From Naegleria gruberi (Eukaryota), in assembly GCA_000004985.1 (NCBI GenBank), contig GG738876.1: a stretch of 64,000 bases of DNA, one strand, 5' to 3'. The number at the start of each line of letters is the position of its first letter. The first letter of the stretch is position 1. The notes beneath the pieces were generated by a model. It was given only the letters and a program-made list of their open reading frames with translations. It did no database searches and had not been told where the DNA came from. Both the position numbers and the translations under genes were made by a program. Below, one piece after another: positions 122-41,076 of the stretch.

Positions 122-3100
122 TTAAGATGACAAATCAAAACAACCAATAACATTTGTTATTGAATTAAATATCATTACAATATTAATATTTGAATCTTGA
201 TTTGTAAAATTATTTGAAATTGTAATGTAAAAACATTGAACATGTTCAGATTTTGTTTTAATCATAAATTCACAATTTTTTTCAAAATGATTTTGAATAC
301 AATCAATAAAATTTAAAATCCATTTTTGTTGTGAATTTGTTGTAATTTTAGATAAAAATTCTAATAAATTATTTAATTCTAAATTAATAAATTCAATTGA
401 ATAATCTGCTAATGCAGAAATTGTTTGTTGATTTTTTAAATATTTTTGTCTAAAATAATCCAAAATATCATTTCTAATTATAGTAATATTAGCTTGTTTA
501 AATAAAGTATCTAATAAATTAATAAAAATTAAATTCATTTGAATTGAATTTAAATTTTTAGAAGAAATTGAATGAATTAAATCCAAATGATTTCCATTTT
601 TAGTATCAAAAATAAAAAATTTAAAAAAACTTGGTTGAGTCCAACATTTTGTAATAAATCTCCAACTTAGATTTGAATTATTTAAAATATTTTCAATTTT
701 ATCTAATTGTAATAATAAACTATTATTAATATTTTGTTTTGTAAAATAATAAAAACAAACAAGTTGCCAAATTTTTTCACATTTTACAAATTTTTTTAAA
801 ATGACAGTTGACACTTGACATAGAGAATTAATACTTCTCATTGAAAAAGCTCTATAACTTAGTATATGTATCCAAATATTCATATCTAAATTTTCAATAG
901 TTGAAATTAATTTTTGTTCATTTCCATAATTGGAAATTAAATAAATATTTAAATTTGCTCCTTTTTCTTCTAAATGTGAAATTAAATCTTTACATGAATT
1001 TAAAATTTTACCATAAATAATATGTAATAAATGTAATGGTGTAATTCCATTTCTATTTTCATGATTTACAAAATTAATTAATTTTTCATTTCCTTCAAAA
1101 CAATTTTCAAATTTTTCAATAATTAATTTCAAAATTGGTAAATTACAAATTCTAATAGAATCGAATAAAACATGTTCATTTCTTTCATATAATTTCATTG
1201 AATTAAATGTATATCCTCTAAATACTTGATCTTTCCAATGTTGAATTGAATATTCTTGTTTTTCTATAATTGTACATAAATTTTCATGAAAGGAAATAAA
1301 TTTTTCAATTTCTTTTAAATTTAATTCTTTTTTTTGTTGATATTTTAATTCTTTCATTTCATAATTTAAATTAATTAATTCATCTTTTATATTTTCATCA
1401 TTATTTAAATTATTTCCAAATATATCATTATTTTTAATTATATAAAAATTATTTAAAAAATTAATAAAAAAAACATTAAATGAATTTTGTGTAATTGGTT
1501 CATTTTGTAAAGTTAATTGTGAATAAATACTTCCATCAATTTTAGAAAATAAATGTGAAATTAAATTACATTGTTTTACAATTGTTGATTCTTTCCAATT
1601 TAATTTTTCATAATTAGAAGATGTATAAACTAGGTAATTTAATTTACAATATTCTATTTTTTTAATTAATATTTTATATTCTTTTAATGATTTTATATTT
1701 AAATTATTATTAGAATTATTAAAATTAGAATTTAAATTATTATTAGAATTATTAAAATTATTTAATTTGTTATCTTTTTTATAAATATAGTAATTTAATA
1801 AAATAGGTCTAATTAATTTACAAAATAAAGCAAAAGGATAATATTGTGTAAATTTAAAAAAAGGAAATTGATCAAATATCCAATTCATAATATCATCATG
1901 ATAATTAACTTTAATTGTATTTAAATTATTATTTTTTAATTTAATATATTTTAAAAATCTTTTAACATGTAATTTTGTTATCCTTAAAAGGAAAGGTATA
2001 ATTTTAGAAGGTGATAAACATGATCTATATTGAGCTAACATATCAATTGTACTACGATTAAATGATTTTTCATTGACAAATGAATATTTATATAAATGGA
2101 CTCCACTTCTCCTTATTTGGAATTTAAATAATTCATTTGAATTTAAATTTTTTAATTCTCTTATACAATTATTTAATAATAATAATATCATATTACATTT
2201 TTGTACATATTTTTCAATCATTTGATAATCAATTTGATTTAATAAATTATTTCGACTATTTCCATTATTAGAAGTTACTATATCTAGTCTATTAAATTGA
2301 TTTGGAAATATATCTAAATGTACATCTAAATCACTACAATTACTTTTAAATAAACTACTTCCACTACTATTACCACCACTATTACCATTACCATTACTAT
2401 TATTACCACTACTATTACTACTATTATTACTATTACGATTATTGGATGATGAATTAGATGATGAATTGGAATTACTATAATGGGATGATCCAATTCTATT
2501 AGTATTATTAGTATTATTAGTATTAGTATTATTATTATAGGAAGAGGATGCTGATACTGGTGATGGATCAAATAGTGGATATTCACTACTACTTGTACTC
2601 GTTAATTTCATTGATTGTTTCCATGTATTAGAAGTATTATTATTATTATTATTGGATGATGAATTAGATGATGAATTTCTATTATTATTATTATTATTGG
2701 ATGAAGAAGAATTGGATGAAAATCTATTAGCAAATGATGATGAAGGTTTGAATGATGGAATTGATGATTGATTAGAAGATGAAGATGATGGATTGAATAA
2801 CATTGTAAAATTATCTAATAAATGTACACTGAATGGTGAAGTTTCACTAAATATAAATCCATTCAAGTTTAATGTAAATATTATAATCATTTCTTGTTGT
2901 TGTTGTTGTTGATCATTGGAAGATGTATTGGATTGAAGTGATGAGTGTTTTGATTTCTTAGAAGACTTGTTGTTAGAATTATTAGTGGTGGGTATTTTGA
3001 TAGCTGCATTTGAACCTATTTGTTGTTGAAGTGTACTATTAGATGATGTTATTATAATATTATTATTATTATTATTATTCGAATTGTTATTATTAGAAAG

Positions 3101-3391
3101 TTGATGATAAATATCATATTGATTGATCACTCTTTCCATTAATAATTCACCACTACTTCCTGTACTTGATGAAGATGATGAAGATAATTGATCTGTCATC
3201 ACAACAATATTCCGATTATAATATTCACTACTATTTACTATTGAATAGGTTAATATTGGATCAATTCCATAAAACATATATCTATCTAATATATTTACTA
3301 TATACTTTTGAAATTGTTTAATATAGGAAGATATCATTGTGTGATCATCATCAAGAAATCTGAAAGTTGACATTTTTTTTATATTATTCAT
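122..3391 (-). CDS. Hypothetical Asn/Ser-rich protein (1089 aa), single exon within window
   Basis: Uninterrupted 3270-nt ORF with ATG at 3391 (plus-strand cat at 3389-3391). Long N/S homopolymer tracts and one ankyrin-like motif (NGITPLHLL). No confident family assignment. Confidence 0.5.
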   Translation of the reverse strand: MNNIKKMSTFRFLDDDHTMISSYIKQFQKYIVNILDRYMFYGIDPILTYSIVNSSEYYNRNIVVMTDQLSSSSSSSTGSSGELLMERVINQYDIYHQLSNNNNSNNNNNNNIIITSSNSTLQQQIGSNAAIKIPTTNNSNNKSSKKSKHSSLQSNTSSNDQQQQQQEMIIIFTLNLNGFIFSETSPFSVHLLDNFTMLFNPSSSSSNQSSIPSFKPSSSFANRFSSNSSSSNNNNNNRNSSSNSSSNNNNNNTSNTWKQSMKLTSTSSSEYPLFDPSPVSASSSYNNNTNTNNTNNTNRIGSSHYSNSNSSSNSSSNNRNSNNSSNSSGNNSNGNGNSGGNSSGSSLFKSNCSDLDVHLDIFPNQFNRLDIVTSNNGNSRNNLLNQIDYQMIEKYVQKCNMILLLLNNCIRELKNLNSNELFKFQIRRSGVHLYKYSFVNEKSFNRSTIDMLAQYRSCLSPSKIIPFLLRITKLHVKRFLKYIKLKNNNLNTIKVNYHDDIMNWIFDQFPFFKFTQYYPFALFCKLIRPILLNYYIYKKDNKLNNFNNSNNNLNSNFNNSNNNLNIKSLKEYKILIKKIEYCKLNYLVYTSSNYEKLNWKESTIVKQCNLISHLFSKIDGSIYSQLTLQNEPITQNSFNVFFINFLNNFYIIKNNDIFGNNLNNDENIKDELINLNYEMKELKYQQKKELNLKEIEKFISFHENLCTIIEKQEYSIQHWKDQVFRGYTFNSMKLYERNEHVLFDSIRICNLPILKLIIEKFENCFEGNEKLINFVNHENRNGITPLHLLHIIYGKILNSCKDLISHLEEKGANLNIYLISNYGNEQKLISTIENLDMNIWIHILSYRAFSMRSINSLCQVSTVILKKFVKCEKIWQLVCFYYFTKQNINNSLLLQLDKIENILNNSNLSWRFITKCWTQPSFFKFFIFDTKNGNHLDLIHSISSKNLNSIQMNLIFINLLDTLFKQANITIIRNDILDYFRQKYLKNQQTISALADYSIEFINLELNNLLEFLSKITTNSQQKWILNFIDCIQNHFEKNCEFMIKTKSEHVQCFYITISNNFTNQDSNINIVMIFNSITNVIGCFDLSS
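1701..1762. repeat. Tandem duplication of about 30 nt (aaattattattagaattattaaaatta) inside the CDS, encoding an N/S/L-rich repeat
   Basis: Two adjacent near-identical units read directly in the sequence. Confidence 0.6.
2438..2677. repeat. 30-bp exact direct repeat attattggatgatgaattagatgatgaatt at 2438-2467 and 2648-2677 inside the gene-1 CDS
   Basis: Identical strings 210 bp apart. The surrounding sequence is an att/act trinucleotide microsatellite encoding poly-Asn/Ser. Confidence 0.7.
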
Positions 3392-8310: not shown

Positions 8311-9595
8311 ATGCATGATGATGATTATGATGAGGATAAAAAGAGCAAGGAACCACTATCAATATTAGGATTTAATTTATCATATTGTGATGGATATATA
8401 CAATTTATATTACTTGCATCATTTATAATATTCTGTTTTATGATGTCGGGTGTAACACAAGAATATATTTTCACTCAATACAAAGGCTTTGATTTCGGAT
8501 TTTTTGCAACATTAATACAATTTATTGTCTATGCAGGTTTTGGTTATTTTGGTTATAGGAAAACAAAAACCTCTTCCTCCTCAGCTCATTCCGATGCTTT
8601 ATTACGAGTGAATAGTACTTTAAATTTTGAAGATGAAATTAAATTCATTTCGCCTTCAACTTTATTACCAATTAGTAGTAGTGGTAGTAGTAATAATAAT
8701 ACAAATAACAATAATTATACAATGAGCCAAAATACTACTCATCAATACAAGAGTACATTTAATAGTAATTATAGCAATAATACATTTAATAATTTTAATA
8801 CAAATATCAGTAATAATCATACCTATAATAACAATTATAGTACTCAATCAACTCAATCATCATCAACATTGAAAAATTATTTAATAACAATCTTTAATTT
8901 ATTACATTTTGATAACAAACTACCAATTAAATATTATTTTATATTAGGATCATGTATGGTAATTGGTATGGGGTTAGGAAATCAATCATTAGCCTATTTA
9001 AATTATCCAACTAAAGTTTTATTTAAAAGTTCAAAACTTTTAATTACAATGTTTGTGGGTGTTTTACTTTTAAGGAAAAGATACAAAACTTTGGATTATT
9101 TAGCGAGTATTTTCTTACTTTTAGGATTATTTTCACTTGTTGGAGCAAATCAACATCATTCTATTAATAGTGTTAAATTTGAATATTTTGGAGTTTTCCT
9201 TATTTCACTTTCTTTAATTTTTGATTCAATTTCATCAAATTACAAGAGAAAGTACTAGAGAAATNNNNNNNNNNNNNNNNNNNNNNNNNNNNNNNNNNNN
9301 NNNNNNNNNNNNNNACAGTTTTATTAGTTATATTGGATCGTACTATACAAGTAAAATGATAAAACAATATGGTATTCTTGTTGCATTAACAACAACTTCA
9401 TGTAGAAAAATTTTAAGTATAATTCTGAGCCATTTCATATTTCCAAAACCATTTAATTTATTTCATGTCATTTCAATCATGTTGGTATTTGCAGGTGTTT
9501 TTATCAGAGTTTATTGTAAACAAAAGAAAGTAATTGATAAAACACTTTTAAATATTTGGTTCATTTTGAAACAACAAAGATATCAACAAGAATAA
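8311..9595 (+). CDS. UAA/SLC35B-family nucleotide-sugar transporter, interrupted by an assembly gap
   Basis: N-terminal part matches the SLC35B pattern (GNQSLAYLNYPTKVLFKSSKLLITMFVGVLLLRKRYKTLDYLASIFLLLGL). The part after the gap (ALTTTSCRKILSIILSHFIFPKPFNLFHVISIMLVFAGVFI) matches the conserved C-terminal TM region of the same family. The two ORFs (8311-9258 and 9318-9595) are in different frames across the N run. There is a poly-N/S insertion in a loop. Confidence 0.65.
9265..9314. other. Assembly gap (50 N) inside the transporter gene
   Basis: Literal run of n characters. Confidence 1.
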
Positions 9596-33721: not shown

Positions 33722-34192
33722 ATGAGCTTGGTTGTCGTTCAAGAAGAAAACTTCAAGGAATTGTTGCGTTTGTTCAACACTAACATTGAAGGTAGAAGAT
33801 CCGCACTCTATGCCTTGACCTCTGTTAAGGGTATTGGTAGACGTTTCGCTGGTATTGTCTTGAAGAAGGCTGAAATCGAACTTACCAAGAGATCTGGTGA
33901 ATTGAGCGAAGAACAAATCAACAAGATTCAAGATATCATTCTTGCTCCAGAAAAGTACAAGATTCCATCTTGGTTCTTGAACAGAAGAAGAGACTGGAAG
34001 AGTGGTGCCACTGAACACTTGGTTGCCAACGCTGTCGATATGTACTTGAGAGAAGATTTGGAAAGACTTAAGAAGATCAAGTCTGAAAGAGGTTTGAGAC
34101 ACATGTGGGGTCTTAGAGTCAGAGGTCAACACACCAAGACTACTGGTAGAAGAGGTAAGACTGTTGGTGTCAGCCATAAGAAACGTGGATAG
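33722..34192 (+). CDS. RPS18: 40S ribosomal protein S18 (uS13), single exon
   Basis: [48 protein letters not shown] and near full-length identity pattern to eukaryotic uS13. Codon usage is GC3-richer than neighbours, consistent with high expression. The overlapping minus-strand ORF 33653-34210 is antisense noise. Confidence 0.9.
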
Positions 34193-34303
34193 GTCCCCTA
34201 ATTTAAACACAAATAAAAAAACATTATTTCATAAATTTTAACATTTTTTTAAAATTATTTATGAAATTTATGTTGTTTTAATTCCAAAAATGTCAATAAA
34301 CTA
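34178..34303 (+). repeat. Cassette copy A: last 12 nt of RPS18 CDS, stop codon and the 3'UTR containing aatgtcaataaacta
   Basis: aagaaacgtggataggtcccctaatttaaacacaaataaaaaaaca...aatgtcaataaacta. This is the prototype for copies B-D. Confidence 0.8.
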
Positions 34304-34343
34304 TTGGTATTTGGTTTCTTAAAATTGGCACTGTACGAGCTGT

Positions 34344-34410
34344 AAGAAACGTGGAAAGGTCCCCTAATTTAAACACAAATAAAAAAACACAAATAAAAAA
34401 ACATTTTTAA
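34344..34410 (+). repeat. Cassette copy B (truncated): aagaaacgtggaaaggtcccctaatttaaacacaaataaaaaaacacaaataaaaaaaca
   Basis: Includes 12 nt matching the RPS18 C-terminal codons, with TAG mutated to AAG. Lacks the aataaacta end. Confidence 0.8.
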
Positions 34411-34420
34411 ATTTACTAGT

Positions 34421-34601
34421 TCTACGGTACTCAATTTGCCAATGTAATAATTTACTGAAAAGTGGATAGGTCCCCTAATTAAAACACTAAAAAGCAATTT
34501 CATAAATTTGAACATTTTTAAATTCCATTAATGTCAATAAACTATAGTGGTGTAAGGCATTAGTTTCTGAACCAATCCATTGGCGAATTGAGTACCGTAG
34601 A
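34421..34601. repeat. 24-bp inverted repeat (tctacggtactcaatttgccaatg at 34421-34444 and cattggcgaattgagtaccgtaga at 34578-34601, 23 of 24 complementary) flanking cassette copy C
   Basis: The reverse complement of the right arm equals the left arm except for one position. The 133-bp spacer contains copy C. The geometry is MITE-like or hairpin-like. Confidence 0.7.
34459..34546 (+). repeat. Cassette copy C: aaaagtggataggtcccctaattaaaacactaaaaagcaatttcataaatttgaaca...ttaatgtcaataaactatag
   Basis: Direct reading. Retains gtggatag and gtcccctaatt and the aataaacta end. Confidence 0.8.
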
Positions 34602-34764
34602 AAGAGTTTCAAACGAGTCATTTCTAGGTTTTCACAACATGATGGCTTTTCAAAATGGACCATCCATCTTTAATTTCCAACTGTTAATCCAAAGCGATCT
34701 GATTTACTGTTTTGGTTGGCCAACAATAAAAGCCTTCTACATGATTCAAAGAGCATTGAGAATG

Positions 34765-34788
34765 AATTGGAATTTTATAACGTTGCAA
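34765..34788 (+). repeat. 24-bp direct repeat aattggaattttataacgttgcaa (copy 1)
   Basis: Identical to 37632-37655. Together they bracket the orphan ORF and cassette copy D. Confidence 0.8.
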
Positions 34789-35359
34789 CGAGAATAGTTG
34801 GTTACTCAATACACCCCCACGGTCAAAATAGCCCTAGTGTTTGAACAGTATTACCGTAGTTCCTCTGGTTTATGAGACCGTCTCAACAACCTCTTACAAA
34901 ATGTCATAGAGACAGAATATCGGAACTACAACTTTTCGCTATTTTGAAATTTAATGGGTAATGGGGTGTATTGGAAAACAAACAAATATTGGATACTACC
35001 AAATTTAAACAATGGACAAACGAACAAGTTTGCTCCTTGTTTTGCATATCAGCTTCTTTTGTACTGTCGACAGCTTTGAAAACTTGCCCTTGTTGTCGGG
35101 TGCAAATGATCTTCTTTTACAATATTTTACATTGTTGTTTACCTTGTCGTGCACGACAACCTAAAATAAATTTTAAAAAAAAATGCTCAAAAACTATGAA
35201 TTATCAGTCTAATCAACAACTATGAATTATCATTCTACTCTTCAACTTTCGGACCATTTCAGAATAATGTATTTTTAAAGACTTTTTCAGCATTTCGGAA
35301 AGACTATAAATACTGAAGGGAGGGTTTCGAATTGTCTTTAAAAATTATTCAAATATTCA

Positions 35360-37519
35360 ATGCCTAAACAACCTTGTTCATCACAAAGGAATGGTAAAAC
35401 TAGCCTTGAAACGGATCAAATTCTCTTGGAATATTATTTAATTCATGGAAATTATTTGAATATCAATCAAAGTAATGCCGACTATCATTTTACTAACTCT
35501 CAATCGAAACAGAGATGGAGAAGAATGAAGGAATGTTTTACAAATAGAGTCATTCAATCCAATCCTTCTACCAATACAACACTGCACAAAATTTCTCTCC
35601 TTTATCCTAATCTGAAAAAGACCATTCTCTTTTCAATTACTTTAAATGATGAGGAGAAAATTATTGAATCAACTCGAAAAGAAATTGCTATCAATCCACC
35701 ACCCATTCAACAAACTCCATATAATAGAAAGGGTGTCTCTACCTTTGAAATTCATCCCGACTCTGAAACTATCAAACAATATTTCCAAAACTTGTTACAT
35801 AATCAAACTCATGTCAAGAAGGTTTCACTCAAAGAAATCAATGCAATTTGGGCTGAAATTGGTTTTGCTCATTACAAGAGTAAAAACACTACAAATAGTG
35901 AACCTGTCATTGCTGCTCAACTTTGTTCATTGAATGGAAAATCGTATGAGAGTGTCAAACAATCGTTCAAAGTTCATAGCAAACTCTATCACAAGAAGGA
36001 AAAGTGTTCTCAGTGTATGGGATTTGCTTGCTTTAATTATTCCATTCTTTGTAAAGGATGTACCTATTTGAAATTAATTGATCATGATCCAGTTATTTGG
36101 ATTCAAAAAACAGCTAATCCCAAAAAAATAGAATGGACCTTTACACTTTCCAACTGTAATAATTTGAATTATACTAGTCTTTTTAATTTGAAATACCCAG
36201 TTGATGATATTCAAAGTAACGACCTGTCAATTCAAAGTGATAAACAAGATGAAATGTCAATTCAAAGTGATGAAAACGGCTGTGACAATTATGAGGAAGA
36301 TGAAATGATGGATGAAACTAATGTAACTCAATCAAAAGAAAGTAATCAATCCATTCAAGAACGAATTCAAACATTTTACACTTCCTGTCATGATTATTGT
36401 AATATTTTTCAAGAAGAATTTAATGGTTTTCAAGAGTGGAAACCAAAATTTCAAAATTATGAACCACCCCATACTGCTCATCAATTAATGAATCAAGCTA
36501 TGGTCAGAAATCGAAACTTGTTGAAACTATTACCTCTTGAGGAGAATTACAATTTTATTTGGATTCAAAATGGTTCTGAAAAGAAACAATATTCTCAATG
36601 GATTGAATTGATTGAGAAGAATTTCAAATTGAAAACTCTTGATAATTTTAATGCAACAGATCCAATTATTTATGTCATGATATTTATTTTCAAAAAGGAT
36701 TATCAAATGGAACCAATGATTCAAATTGGTGAAAGTGAAAATTATCAAAAGAGAATGAATGGTTACAAATATGACAGTTCAGATCGATTGATCAATAGAG
36801 CCTTTAGTAAGGCCACATTAATTTTTAGTTGTCCTCTAGAGATTCAAGCTGATACACCCATACGTAAATTGAAAGAAACCTTTTATATTTGTCAATTGTT
36901 GGAACAAGCATTTCATCCTCTCAATAGCAATTTTAGTGATCCTGATAGTGTCAATCGCTTACATTCCATTTTTGATGGTAAAATTAATTTCTCAACATTG
37001 GATAGATTGAATTATTCAAGTTTTAACACTTCTCTCAAACTTTTACATCTTGATTCTGATGCTAATAATACCATTCATATTGAGAAGGGAAATTATGTGA
37101 TTGAAAGTAATAATCAAGTAGTATTGAGAAAACCATTTATATTCATGTTGGAAAGAGAGAAATTCAAACACTACTTTCCTCATGCTCCTCAAAAATTGTT
37201 GAATGCCTTTAACATTGCCTCAATCAAGTATCAAGGATTGAATAATTTATTGTATGACAATGATGAGTTGTACAAGGAGGAATACTTGCCAAAATGTTTT
37301 GGAATAATGAATAGAATTGTTCATCCCAAAGGTTTTGGCAAGTATTTGCGCTTTGATTTTCCAAGTGCATGTCTTGAATATGAAAATGGTTTTTATCCCA
37401 TTTCCTTCCTCTCTATTCGATGCAATTATGAACAAGTCATTAGAAAGGTCATTATGAAAAATACAATCATGAAGGATTGTATCTGCATTAACGATGTGGA
37501 AGATGATAATTTCATCTAA
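35360..37519 (+). CDS. Orphan 719-aa protein. N-terminal Myb/SANT-like stretch (ILLEYYLIHGNY...SKQRWRRMKECF), a Cys cluster (CSQCMGFACFNYSILCKGCTYLKL) and an internal 30-nt tandem repeat (SIQSD x2)
   Basis: ATG-initiated uninterrupted 2160-nt ORF. No RT, integrase or DDE motifs seen. The 3' end is immediately followed by cassette copy D. Confidence 0.55.
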   Translation: MPKQPCSSQRNGKTSLETDQILLEYYLIHGNYLNINQSNADYHFTNSQSKQRWRRMKECFTNRVIQSNPSTNTTLHKISLLYPNLKKTILFSITLNDEEKIIESTRKEIAINPPPIQQTPYNRKGVSTFEIHPDSETIKQYFQNLLHNQTHVKKVSLKEINAIWAEIGFAHYKSKNTTNSEPVIAAQLCSLNGKSYESVKQSFKVHSKLYHKKEKCSQCMGFACFNYSILCKGCTYLKLIDHDPVIWIQKTANPKKIEWTFTLSNCNNLNYTSLFNLKYPVDDIQSNDLSIQSDKQDEMSIQSDENGCDNYEEDEMMDETNVTQSKESNQSIQERIQTFYTSCHDYCNIFQEEFNGFQEWKPKFQNYEPPHTAHQLMNQAMVRNRNLLKLLPLEENYNFIWIQNGSEKKQYSQWIELIEKNFKLKTLDNFNATDPIIYVMIFIFKKDYQMEPMIQIGESENYQKRMNGYKYDSSDRLINRAFSKATLIFSCPLEIQADTPIRKLKETFYICQLLEQAFHPLNSNFSDPDSVNRLHSIFDGKINFSTLDRLNYSSFNTSLKLLHLDSDANNTIHIEKGNYVIESNNQVVLRKPFIFMLEREKFKHYFPHAPQKLLNAFNIASIKYQGLNNLLYDNDELYKEEYLPKCFGIMNRIVHPKGFGKYLRFDFPSACLEYENGFYPISFLSIRCNYEQVIRKVIMKNTIMKDCICINDVEDDNFI

Positions 37520-37525
37520 TATATG

Positions 37526-37628
37526 TGAGTCCCCTAATTAAAACACGAATAAAAAAGCAATTTCATAAATTTTACCATTTTTTATTTTTTTAATTTTTAT
37601 TTAATTCCATAAATGTCAATAAACTACA
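37526..37628 (+). repeat. Cassette copy D, directly after the orphan ORF stop: tgagtcccctaattaaaacacgaataaaaaagcaatttcataaatttta...taaatgtcaataaactacag
   Basis: Same gtcccctaatt...aatgtcaataaacta architecture as the RPS18 3'UTR. Followed by the second copy of the 24-bp direct repeat. Confidence 0.8.
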
Positions 37629-37631
37629 GAT

Positions 37632-37655
37632 AATTGGAATTTTATAACGTTGCAA
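37632..37655 (+). repeat. 24-bp direct repeat aattggaattttataacgttgcaa (copy 2)
   Basis: Exact match to 34765-34788. Confidence 0.8.
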
Positions 37656-38642
37656 TCAATATTGAAAAATCTCCTTCTCAACTTTCATTTTTTGTAAAAT
37701 AACACCTTTCAGAATGTATCATGGTGTGCAAGTCTTTATTTTCATCTAATATTTATGATATTATTTTTAATTCCATTTTTAACAGAGAGGATAAACCCAA
37801 TAATCCATACGATTTAAATAAAAAAACCATATTTAAAAATCAAATAATCATTTCGAATTGCTGCCGGCACAAATGGTGACAAAAATTGCTGGAAGCCACT
37901 GTATTCCCATCGAGATTGCTAACAAAATTTGTAGGAGCCATCTACTCAAGTCAATTTTCAATACCCTGTTTCAACAAACAGTCATTATTCTTTTCAGATT
38001 GGAGCAAGTCATTGATTTTTAAATATCTTGTTTTGCTATGAATTGTTGACTGTTATTGTGATTGCTGACTGTGAGGATTAATATGAACAATACGAATTGC
38101 TAAATTCTAATAATCCAATTAAGGGAAATGGGATAGATTGAATGGTAAGTTCCATTAACATGTCTCAATTCACCACGTATTGTCTCAATCATTTATTGTC
38201 TTATTACATTAACTAAAAAACTACTCCTCATCAGAGCTTGGCTTACAGAGAAATACTTTTTATCAATTAATTTTAATCCAGTAAGTGTTGAACTAATCTC
38301 TCCAGATATTAAATTCCATTTAACTATTTTATTGTGTTTCCATTTTTTGAAATTGTTTCTAGAGATGATTCCATTGGGAGAGAAAGTAAGGAGTGTTTGG
38401 ATTTGTGATTGTTAATGCCTTTTTCATTAAGGTTAAAAGTGTTGGTTCATTTTCTTAATTTTATTTAAAAAAATGAAACAATCCGAATGCATGTCTTTAT
38501 CAAGAAACGATGAACACTTTTTCCAAAGGAATTTGAAGCAATTCGTAAATTTTTGAGTGAAAATCAGTCAACATATTTATCTGGTTTTTATGAGCTGGAA
38601 ATTAGTATCGAAAAATCTCAGTATTTCTTTAAATGAAAAACA

Positions 38643-38860
38643 ATGAAAAAAAGTGATTATCGTAAGATAGCCAATTTGAAGTTAAGAGCTGGGTAAGAGC
38701 TGCCGATGAATTGAGAGAATGTGTCAATAATTTTCCAAGCTCCAATAACATTAATAATAGAGAGGATTTCTTCAAGTATCGATTAAATTGGTTAATGTCA
38801 ATTGGTAATGACAATTTATATTTTGATTGTAGTGTTGAACTTGGCGAAAATATTAAATAA
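38643..38860 (+). CDS. Tentative small spliced gene (about 55 aa: MKKSDYRKIANLKLRAG|SNNINNREDFFKYRLNWLMSIGNDNLYFDCSVELGENIK). Exons 38643-38692 and 38740-38860
   Basis: ATG, then GG|GTAAGA donor and CCAAG| acceptor (47-nt intron) keep the frame to a TAA at 38858-38860. It lies in an otherwise empty 1.5-kb interval. Purely structural inference with no homology. Confidence 0.2.
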
Positions 38861-39163
38861 AATTAATACTGATATTTATATACGCAATGGTTATTCAAGG
38901 ATATATAATGTTTGCAAATTCCAATGATATGGATGATGCATTTAATTGTGAAGAATTTCACAAAACAATAATATTAACGATACTGACATCAATATTTTTA
39001 AGGCAACAGTCTTTTCATTTTTTTAATTCGATCGAATTTATCGATCTTTGAAAAGATTTATTTCAATTCTATTGATTGCATTGACGTTAACAGAGATAAT
39101 CTGGCAAAGTTGATTAATTTTAATTATTTTATTTTCAATTTTAACAATTTTTCAAAACTTAAT

Positions 39164-41076
39164 TTACCATCCGTAAAGTCCCTTACCAACACGAACCTTT
39201 TCTAAATAATCTTCAAAATCCTTCTTCAAATAAATAGGCATAACACCACGCATAGCAGCATCTCTATCAACAGATCTAAGTTGATCAACACACTTGAAGA
39301 AAGCAGGAATGACGTTCAAAATATTTCTACTACCATAGAGTCTGACAGAACAGTATTTAAGACCCAAATAAGCACACAACTTTCTTAAAATTGGATTGGC
39401 AGTTGGTTGTTCCTTAGTACTAGGGTGAATTCTGACTTTACAAGCACCAAACTTGGCTTCGAGCATATGAGAACGTGGAATGCAAGCAGAAGGATCAATA
39501 CTTCTAATATTCTTATAAGCAGCCTTTCTTGCCTTTGATTGAGCAACTGCTGGACTGGCAGCTGTACCAAAACCAACACCACACAATCCACTGTAACTTC
39601 CTACCAAGTACAAACAATTGTATGATTCAACTCTACCACCAGTGGTCATTTTACAATTTCTTGAAAGCTTGAGAACCTTTTCTTCGAATGAAACATCTGT
39701 AATAGCATCCTTTTGACCGTGATAAATTTCTGGATCTTCAACATCATCAGCAAGTGGGTGAGTAATTGCTGGTTCACCTTCATATTCATAAAGTGATTCA
39801 TCCCAATCAGCATCAAGATCAACATCTCCAAAGTAACCCTTTTCAACACCAACACTAGCATTATAAATTGGATTAACACTAACATTAGTCTTGGATGACT
39901 TTCCCTCTATGATTGATTCTAAATTTTGGATTTGTTGTCCAAGTTGTGTTTCATCAAATTGATATAAATAGAAAGGAGCTGATGTTTCATCTCTTTCTTG
40001 TCTTAACAGCTTAGTGTTCAATGATTTAATCATATCGGATTGATCAACCTTTGAAACTTTGAATCTCTTTCCTTGCAATTTACCTAAATTTTCAACATCT
40101 TGAGAAACACGTTCAAATGACTTTGGAACTTGAATTCTTTCAGGATCAGCTTCATTCTTTTCTTCAATTAATTCATGGAATCTAGAGTAATCTTTTCTAA
40201 CTCTTAAAGCTTCTTGTAATTCATTAATTGGTATGTTTTCATCGACATCCTCAATATCTATAGTATCAATTTCATTTGACCCAACTTCTTCTTCATCTTC
40301 AATTTCTTCCATTTGTTCATTTTCATTATCCTCGTCTTGATCTCTTCTTGAGATGTTATCTTCATCAACCATTTCATCTAAGTCATCCAAATCGGCTTGA
40401 GTCTTTAATTTACTCAAATCATATAAACTTTTAACTTTGAATCTGTTATATTCAGTTTCGGCAGGTTGAGAAAAAGTACCAGGGAACATTCCAAAGTTAG
40501 TATATTTAGCCCAAATTCTTTCCTTTTGTACAGCTCTTGGTAATTGAAGGTTAACGTTGGCTTGTAAGAGACTCAAACTAATAAAGGCTTCCTTGATTTT
40601 TCTTACAAGTTTTGTTTCCTTCTTTTCGGTAGCGAGCCAATAAACAACTTTATGTCTCTTTTCCTTACGCAAATTCTTGAGGTAGAAGACAAGAGTTTCA
40701 AACATTTCTTCAGTGAATTTAGTACCTTGTTGTTTTGCTTCTATAATATTGATAAACTAGTTATAAAATTATTATTGTTGTTGTTTAACATTATTTTGAG
40801 AGCGATAATATTACATACGTCTTTATCATTATCTGTTGTTGGGAAATTTAATTCTTCGGCAGGAATTTCTCTATTTCTTTCTTTTTCTTCCATTTGTTTA
40901 AGTTCGCTATCACTAATTCTTTCAAAAGAATTTTTAATGATTTTACTTGATGAAAAGCATCGGCTTTGAATATATGAAGGAGAGTTGTGAATTGAAGAAA
41001 AACAAAGAGGTGATTGCTTGGTGGCCAACTTCTTAGTTGAAGAAGGGAGCTGGCGCAAAAGTTTAATGTTTCTCAT
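39164..41076 (-). CDS. MRPS5: Mitochondrial ribosomal protein S5 (uS5m) with a long acidic N-terminal extension. Exons 41076-40819 and 40756-39164, with a 62-nt intron
   Basis: C-terminal uS5 signature: GGRVESYNCLYLVGSYSGLCGVGFGTAASPAVAQSKARKAAYKN..GACKVRIHPS..LGLKYCSVRLYGSRNILNVIPAFFKCVDQL. Exon 1 looks like a mitochondrial presequence (MRNIKLLRQLPSSTKKLATKQSP..). Donor GAC|GTATGT and acceptor AACTAG|TTT. Confidence 0.75.

Follow-up and report, generated by a model that had tools for sequence, protein, structure and literature searches.

How does a gene of 719 codons come to stand between two identical 24-bp sequences in the nuclear genome of Naegleria gruberi, and do these repeats mark the ends of a mobile element? 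The question arises from a 64-kb stretch of contig GG738876.1 (assembly GCA_000004985.1; hereafter the window), which is N. gruberi nuclear DNA of around 32% G+C. A first-pass annotation of its sequence had singled out positions 34765–37655 and proposed an insertion or duplication unit with direct terminal repeats, carrying an orphan gene for a possible DNA-binding protein. We find that the gene, NAEGRDRAFT_68992 (35360–37519, plus strand, 719 aa, ATG start), does lie in inserted DNA, as gene order in related amoebae reveals, but that the 24-mers are not the ends of the insertion, which occupies 34193–39163. On balance, and with some reserve, sequence comparison leads us to favour a reading in which the 24-mer belongs to local duplications of the native intergenic spacer, and is neither a transposon terminal repeat nor a target-site duplication. 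The locus is then a lineage-specific gene gain of an ordinary kind, if well resolved, and holds no recognisable mobile element.

The insertion can be read directly from synteny. The conserved left flank is the gene for ribosomal protein RPS18 (uS13), a 156-aa open reading frame (ORF) at 33722–34192 on the plus strand; the conserved right flank is the gene for mitochondrial ribosomal protein uS5, at 39164–40705 on the minus strand, with Pfam domains PF00333 and PF03719. We compared this interval with four loci from three relatives: N. lovaniensis, Willaertia magna and a further Naegleria(-like) organism represented by two public assemblies (European Nucleotide Archive ERZ27315067 and Logan SRR636569). 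The RPS18 orthologues at these loci carry PF00416 (Ribosomal_S13), with 90% identity to N. lovaniensis by tblastx, and the uS5 orthologues are 73% (further Naegleria), 69% (N. lovaniensis) and 48% (W. magna) identical to that of N. gruberi. By uS5, the organism in ERZ27315067 and SRR636569 is thus closer to N. gruberi than N. lovaniensis is. In all three relatives RPS18 is the immediate convergent neighbour of uS5 with no gene between them, and the stop-to-stop distance is 87 bp in N. lovaniensis, 196 bp in the further Naegleria and 581 bp in W. magna, compared with 4,971 bp (34193–39163) in N. gruberi. The window is collinear with an N. lovaniensis contig from 26.4 to 45.9 kb, the RPS18–uS5 interval (34195–39167) being the sole break, and tblastx found no counterpart of the inserted DNA at the relatives' loci. 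Because the two genes are adjacent in the relatives and 4,971 bp apart here, the gene between them sits in DNA that the N. gruberi lineage has gained; it is a lineage-specific orphan in a conserved syntenic block. This lineage-specific DNA overshoots the bracket on both sides, by around 570 bp left of 24-mer copy 1 and by 1.5 kb beyond copy 2. Given that the gained DNA is larger than the bracketed unit, the 24-mers do not delimit the insertion. Of the proposal of an insertion unit with direct terminal repeats, the insertion therefore stands and the terminal position of the repeats does not.

The repeat itself is a plain observation. The 24-mer, AATTGGAATTTTATAACGTTGCAA, occurs on the plus strand in exactly two copies, at 34765–34788 and 37632–37655, as the first-pass annotation had reported. 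The window contains no third copy even when up to three mismatches are allowed, none of 100 dinucleotide-preserving shuffles yielded two matches, and the 24-mer is absent from Joint Genome Institute (JGI) metagenome contigs. The identity is exactly 24 nt long and the bases that flank the two copies are unrelated to each other: copy 1 lies 216 nt 3′ of the end of a repeated cassette, C, and copy 2 overlaps the tail of another, D (both described below). A k-mer census of exact direct repeats of at least 18 nt placed all of them within 34191–37655, with the exception of low-complexity runs and a run of Ns. (The latter, at 9265–9314, is probably an assembly gap.) Three exact repeats are non-trivial: the 24-mer itself, a 33-mer found in both cassette A and cassette B, and a 21-mer found in both C and D. 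Because they all cluster in this one interval, the 24-mer is one of several local duplications and not an isolated pair.

These duplications involve the 3′ untranslated region (3′ UTR) and spacer of RPS18, present on the plus strand as cassettes A to D. Cassette A (34193–34323), which we used as the reference copy for comparing the other three, begins with the base that follows the RPS18 stop codon and has its AATAAA at 34295. Because it starts at that stop codon and resembles the N. lovaniensis RPS18–uS5 spacer (P ≈ 0.013; P ≈ 0.023 for cassette D), the cassette can be identified as the native RPS18 3′ UTR and spacer; an 11-mer in common with the N. lovaniensis spacer was dismissed, as such a match is expected by chance. 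Homology among the cassettes is directly detectable with nhmmer, in which A matched D (E = 1.4 × 10⁻¹⁰, over 37523–37646), C (E = 1.5 × 10⁻⁸) and B (E = 1.1 × 10⁻⁷). Gap-tolerant identities are 92% for A and C, 91% for A and D and 94.8% (73/77) for C and D. Cassette B (34343–34413) is a partial tandem copy that runs from the 3′ coding end of RPS18 into the beginning of the UTR. Over 47 nt it matches 34177–34223 with 98% identity at a spacing of 166 nt, including the exact 33-mer, and it contains AAGAAACGTGGAAAG, a copy of the last RPS18 codons. Cassette C (34457–34548) opens with a copy of the last RPS18 codons, followed by UTR, and forms the left flank of the ORF-bearing segment, and cassette D (37529–37646) is a copy of the RPS18 3′ UTR that forms the 3′ flank of the orphan gene, within the bracket as the first-pass annotation had it. 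C and D have derived states in common in addition to the exact 21-mer, indicating that they are sister copies flanking the ORF-bearing segment. Candidate fragments of the uS5 3′ coding end in the tails of C and D were rejected as not significant (P = 0.08 and 0.67).

The junction between the orphan gene and cassette D is tight. The cassette begins 9 nt past the TAA of the orphan gene, and its AATAAA (37618) lies 99 nt 3′ of that stop codon. Two codons after the TAA there is an in-frame TGA (within 37517–37528), which occupies the position of the RPS18 TAG relative to GTCCCC, where the cassette begins. Given that the TGA falls at the old TAG position, the coding region joins the duplicated 3′ UTR almost exactly at the former stop-codon site.

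Does the 24-mer itself belong to this spacer? Copy 2 starts 2 nt beyond the end of the homology between C and D, and the homology between A and D runs for around 15 nt into it. When A and D are anchored at the shared AATAAACTA, 13 of the next 21 nt are identical (P ≈ 0.002). From these alignments, copy 2 is probably native spacer sequence contiguous with cassette D. A run of 24 unchanged nucleotides is expected in 10–28% of repeats of the same age at 91–95% identity (0.948²⁴ = 0.28); because such a run is not improbable at the divergence of the cassettes, the 24-mer can match the duplication of C and D in age. We dropped an earlier argument that the 24-mer is necessarily younger than the cassettes, as it rested on ungapped identities of 78%, where gap-tolerant alignment gives 91–95%.

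We propose that around 4.8 kb of DNA entered the short RPS18–uS5 spacer after N. gruberi split from the other sampled Naegleria. Entry and later repair would have duplicated the native spacer, that is, the last RPS18 codons and the 3′ UTR/poly(A) cassette, into A, B, C and D, so that the ORF-carrying segment came to lie between the sister copies C and D, and D could supply what may now be the poly(A) signal of the orphan gene. Cassette C with 24-mer copy 1, and cassette D with copy 2, would then be two copies of one spacer duplication of around 125 nt that brackets the ORF, with copy 1 assigned as the matching tail of C. This duplication could have arisen as a long target duplication or by insertion between tandem spacer copies, and its left copy would later have been split by a 216-nt filler (34549–34764) that holds an inverted copy of adjacent sequence. 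That inverted copy is visible as a 30-nt inverted repeat enclosing cassette C, in which the left arm (34415–34444) pairs with the right arm (34578–34607) at 27 of 30 positions (24/25 by blastn); folded as single-stranded DNA it has a z-score of −5.4, and it is consistent with snap-back templated synthesis during repair. Direct and inverted patches of this kind around C form the pattern left by error-prone break repair or template switching, and the bracket may thus be a by-product of such events at a constrained junction of convergent genes. Templated filler and local duplications result from alternative end joining by polymerase theta or from replication template switching (microhomology-mediated break-induced replication, MMBIR, or fork stalling and template switching, FoSTeS). 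The locus is like templated filler in that its junctions carry short stretches copied from close by, some direct and some inverted (the 47-nt patch in B, the inverted 30-mer and the 24-mer). It differs from polymerase-theta templating in that the 24-mer copies are 2.9 kb apart, beyond the typical distance, and the likeness is one of pattern only.

Several results weigh against a common origin of the 24-mer and the cassettes by spacer duplication. An unanchored local alignment restricted to the tails of A and D falls short of significance (P = 0.26). The sequence next to copy 1 on its left has no similarity to a cassette, and tying copy 1 to cassette C demands the extra 216-nt insertion. A candidate fifth spacer copy abutting uS5 was rejected as not significant (P ≈ 0.08).

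Is NAEGRDRAFT_68992 nevertheless a gene? Its translation is 100% identical over the full length to an N. gruberi 'predicted protein' (XP_002675666.1, EFC42922.1, D2VJC8), and none of the other five frames of 35360–37519 has an ORF of more than 95 aa. G+C at the first, second and third codon positions (GC1, GC2 and GC3) is 0.37, 0.29 and 0.27, and the synonymous-codon score is 0.19 in frame as against 0.04 and 0.12 out of frame, inside the range of the conserved neighbours. The SIQSD tandem repeat noticed at first pass consists of two 30-nt units at 36216–36275. From these sequence properties we regard NAEGRDRAFT_68992 as a real protein-coding gene, single-copy in the window and taxonomically restricted. 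No paper that we found mentions the locus, and exact look-ups among N. gruberi proteins turned up no record from another strain or of a transcript.

The notion that the ORF is instead non-functional, as a decaying relic or a chance open frame, draws on the lack of homologues, which makes a test for selection impossible, together with a structure prediction of very low confidence and the silence of the literature. We give it very little credence: at a stop frequency of around 8% per codon, as expected from base composition, 719 stop-free codons at 31% G+C are impossible by chance, the other frames are closed within 95 codons, and the frame-specific codon signal matches that of bona fide neighbours.

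Searches for relatives of the protein bore out the orphan status directly. The protein itself was the sole match in an exhaustive phmmer/HMMER search of 1.84 billion protein representatives. It was also the sole match in a word-indexed search of 5.8 billion clusters, an index from which a query with the C-terminal 340 aa returned nothing, the orphan included, so that negatives from that index alone do not amount to absence. No homologue was detected in scans of viral and metagenome contigs with tblastn confirmation, no match to residues 420–559 by tblastn among 50,697 phage records, and none to the protein in a sequence search of the PDB; no paralogue occurs in the window or at the relatives' syntenic loci. 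As far as sequence searches reach, the protein is a true orphan.

The suggestion of a Myb/SANT-like N terminus gained no support from profile searching. A W-R-R-M stretch follows a predicted helical region at residues 16–64 in a low-confidence model, which resembles Myb, SANT or MADF proteins, but neither the whole protein nor residues 1–130 alone gave a Myb, SANT, MADF or helix-turn-helix (HTH) match in Pfam at E ≤ 10 or at any threshold tried. AlphaFold2 without an alignment gave a mean predicted local distance difference test (pLDDT) of 30 for the full length, which is unusable. Pfam (whole protein and six segments), PHROGs, NCBIfam and PADLOC yielded sub-threshold noise only, apart from T5orf172 (PF10544), a nuclease domain related to GIY-YIG that occurs in phages, in giant viruses and, as Mug113, in fungi.

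This last match raises the idea that the ORF encodes a nuclease of the T5orf172/GIY-YIG type and is selfish or of viral origin, its own DNA cutting having driven a homing-like insertion and the duplications. The match covers residues 437–485 (36668–36814, plus strand) and profile positions 3–34 of 101; it scores 14.7 bits when the whole protein is searched and 17.2 bits (E = 0.0073) with the segment, below the Pfam gathering cut-off of 20 bits. At the level of motifs the sequence can be read as IIYVM ... IQIGES ... KR, and upstream of it stands the Cys cluster noted earlier, CSQCMGFACFNYSILCKGC, which is present in the translation with the spacing CxxC-x11-CxxC. A low-confidence model of residues 420–559 (pLDDT 36) has a beta-beta-alpha-alpha-beta-alpha order that would be compatible with GIY-YIG. 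Foldseek against the PDB gave no match to this model at E ≤ 0.001, a result that is not interpretable; among the top five, the highest target-normalised TM (template modelling) score belonged to 1zg2, a non-significant match (E = 2.6) to a UPF0213 protein, which we take to be of the GIY-YIG family. T5orf172 is listed among the nuclease domains of restriction-modification endonucleases (PMC4738411). Set against these points are a score below the cut-off over one third of the profile, with the C-terminal two thirds unmatched, and no significant relative by sequence or fold, whether phage, viral or other; moreover, codon usage is host-like and the gene is single-copy so far as visible. We therefore consider a selfish nuclease unlikely. 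The T5orf172/GIY-YIG-like stretch and the Cys cluster are weak hints of nucleic-acid binding or cleavage, and the nuclease reading is a lead only. It is very unlikely, in our estimation, that NAEGRDRAFT_68992 founds a new kind of eukaryotic nuclear selfish gene, one whose product, a nuclease highly diverged from GIY-YIG/T5orf172 and bearing a zinc knuckle, cuts the terminators of convergent genes, the gene then being copied into the break. If it did, a selfish nuclease would be creating long duplications of its target spacer, sparing the 3′ ends of its neighbours and giving the invader a ready poly(A) signal.

The geometry of the bracket could alternatively reflect a discrete mobile or integrative unit of 2.87 kb (34765–37655), with the 24-mer as a target-site duplication or attachment site. 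As in a transposon target-site duplication, the inserted segment with its gene is flanked left and right by a short, exact direct repeat; the repeat has sharp edges, and its outer flanks are unrelated. The unit would contain one ORF with its own upstream region and a right inner end 8 nt past an AATAAA. However, the last 103 bp of such a unit would have to share 91% identity with the RPS18 3′ UTR located around 450 bp upstream of its supposed target, the apparent crossing of cassette homology into 24-mer copy 2 would be a coincidence, and the lineage-specific DNA reaches well past both repeats. The repeat listing contains no terminal inverted repeats joining the inner ends (from 34789 and up to 37631). 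Pfam searches detected no transposase, reverse transcriptase or integrase in the ORF, in agreement with the first-pass annotation, and no recombinase; nor did they detect any of these in 37656–39163 (six frames) or 34548–35359 (four of six frames), and there is no second copy of the bracketed unit in the window. To our knowledge, a 24-bp duplication is longer than any made by cut-and-paste transposases. Retroelement duplications are accompanied by poly(A) tails or long terminal repeats (LTRs); here the sequence before copy 2 (...AATAAACTACAGAT|AATTGG) has no run of A, and there are no LTRs of at least 100 bp, the repeat measuring only 24 bp between unrelated flanks. The locus is unlike a target-site duplication in that no terminal inverted repeats, transposase, reverse transcriptase, tail or further copies (the last within the window) were found, and one of its 24-mers is apparently native spacer. 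We rate a mobile unit as improbable. A further thought is that the 24-mer is a functional cis-element, for protein binding, termination or insulation, kept identical by selection. Its perfect identity, the palindrome AACGTT inside it and the position of copy 2 just 3′ of a poly(A) signal would suit such a role, but the 24-mer recurs nowhere else in 64 kb with more than 30 genes, nor in the metagenome contigs, and at the divergence of the cassettes chance alone would leave 24 nt identical in 10–28% of same-age repeats; a cis-element accordingly seems highly improbable. Finally, absence from relatives cannot by itself polarise the event, and the gene could have been present in the common ancestor of Naegleria and Willaertia, with precise loss from the spacer in the other lineages. 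This would require at least two to three independent clean deletions leaving spacers of 87–581 bp, with no remnant in the relatives' spacers and no homologue anywhere else, and the flanking copies of native spacer are a signature of gain, not of loss elsewhere. Ancestry followed by loss is, in our view, extremely unlikely.

The first-pass annotation had described the DNA between the 24-mers as holding only the ORF and cassette D; both are there, but 571 bp of non-coding sequence (34789–35359) precede the ORF and carry features of their own. At 34797–34983, starting 8 nt to the inside of 24-mer copy 1, a 21-nt inverted repeat closes a hairpin of 187 nt. Its RNA fold has a z-score of −3.8, none of 200 shuffles was equally stable, and its G+C content of around 38% is above that of the surrounding spacer. 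It has no Rfam match; a small structured RNA and the remnant of a foldback are both conceivable. Further towards the gene there are two tandem units of 26 bp with 88% identity, together with an imperfect palindrome that overlaps (35187–35238 and 35125–35178), followed by TATAAATA at 35305–35312 on the plus strand, 55 nt upstream of the ATG, which on its sequence would be a TATA-like element and candidate core promoter. At the right end of the insertion, 1.5 kb of N. gruberi-specific DNA (37656–39163) have no ORF longer than 61 aa, no Pfam match in six frames, no Rfam match and no counterpart at the relatives' four loci. This empty stretch stands within an otherwise gene-dense region. Rfam searches of the whole window at gathering scores and of 34150–39200 in E-value mode, together with a tRNA scan, found nothing relevant. 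Elsewhere in the window, a 1,089-aa ORF on the minus strand (122–3391) lies in a region of 16% G+C and has a GC3 of 0.08, compared with around 0.27 in all neighbouring genes; its protein has Asn/Ser-rich low-complexity runs and no Pfam family, making it a strong compositional outlier in the N. gruberi genome.

The Naegleria pangenome includes hundreds of species-specific genes of unknown function (PMC9928731), so the existence of an orphan as such is unsurprising, and for N. gruberi there are methylome and H3K9me3/H3K27me3 data (GSE287846, PMC12344493), with 447 hypermethylated regions, in which methylation marks young repeats and foreign DNA. NAEGRDRAFT_68992 is like other taxonomically restricted Naegleria genes in being confined to one species, with no detectable homologue and with conserved synteny around it. 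It is unlike them in that the site of its insertion, between two essential genes in convergent orientation, can be given to the base and that it has acquired a copy of a neighbour's 3′ UTR. The locus reveals no new mobile element and no new protein family with an assignable function. What it offers is a clean, base-resolved case of a protist gaining a large orphan gene in the terminator spacer, 87–200 bp long, of two essential genes. Duplication of the spacer would have let both neighbours survive and given the newcomer a copy of its neighbour's 3′ UTR, making the locus useful for understanding the origin of orphan genes and the reuse of 3′ UTRs in Naegleria.

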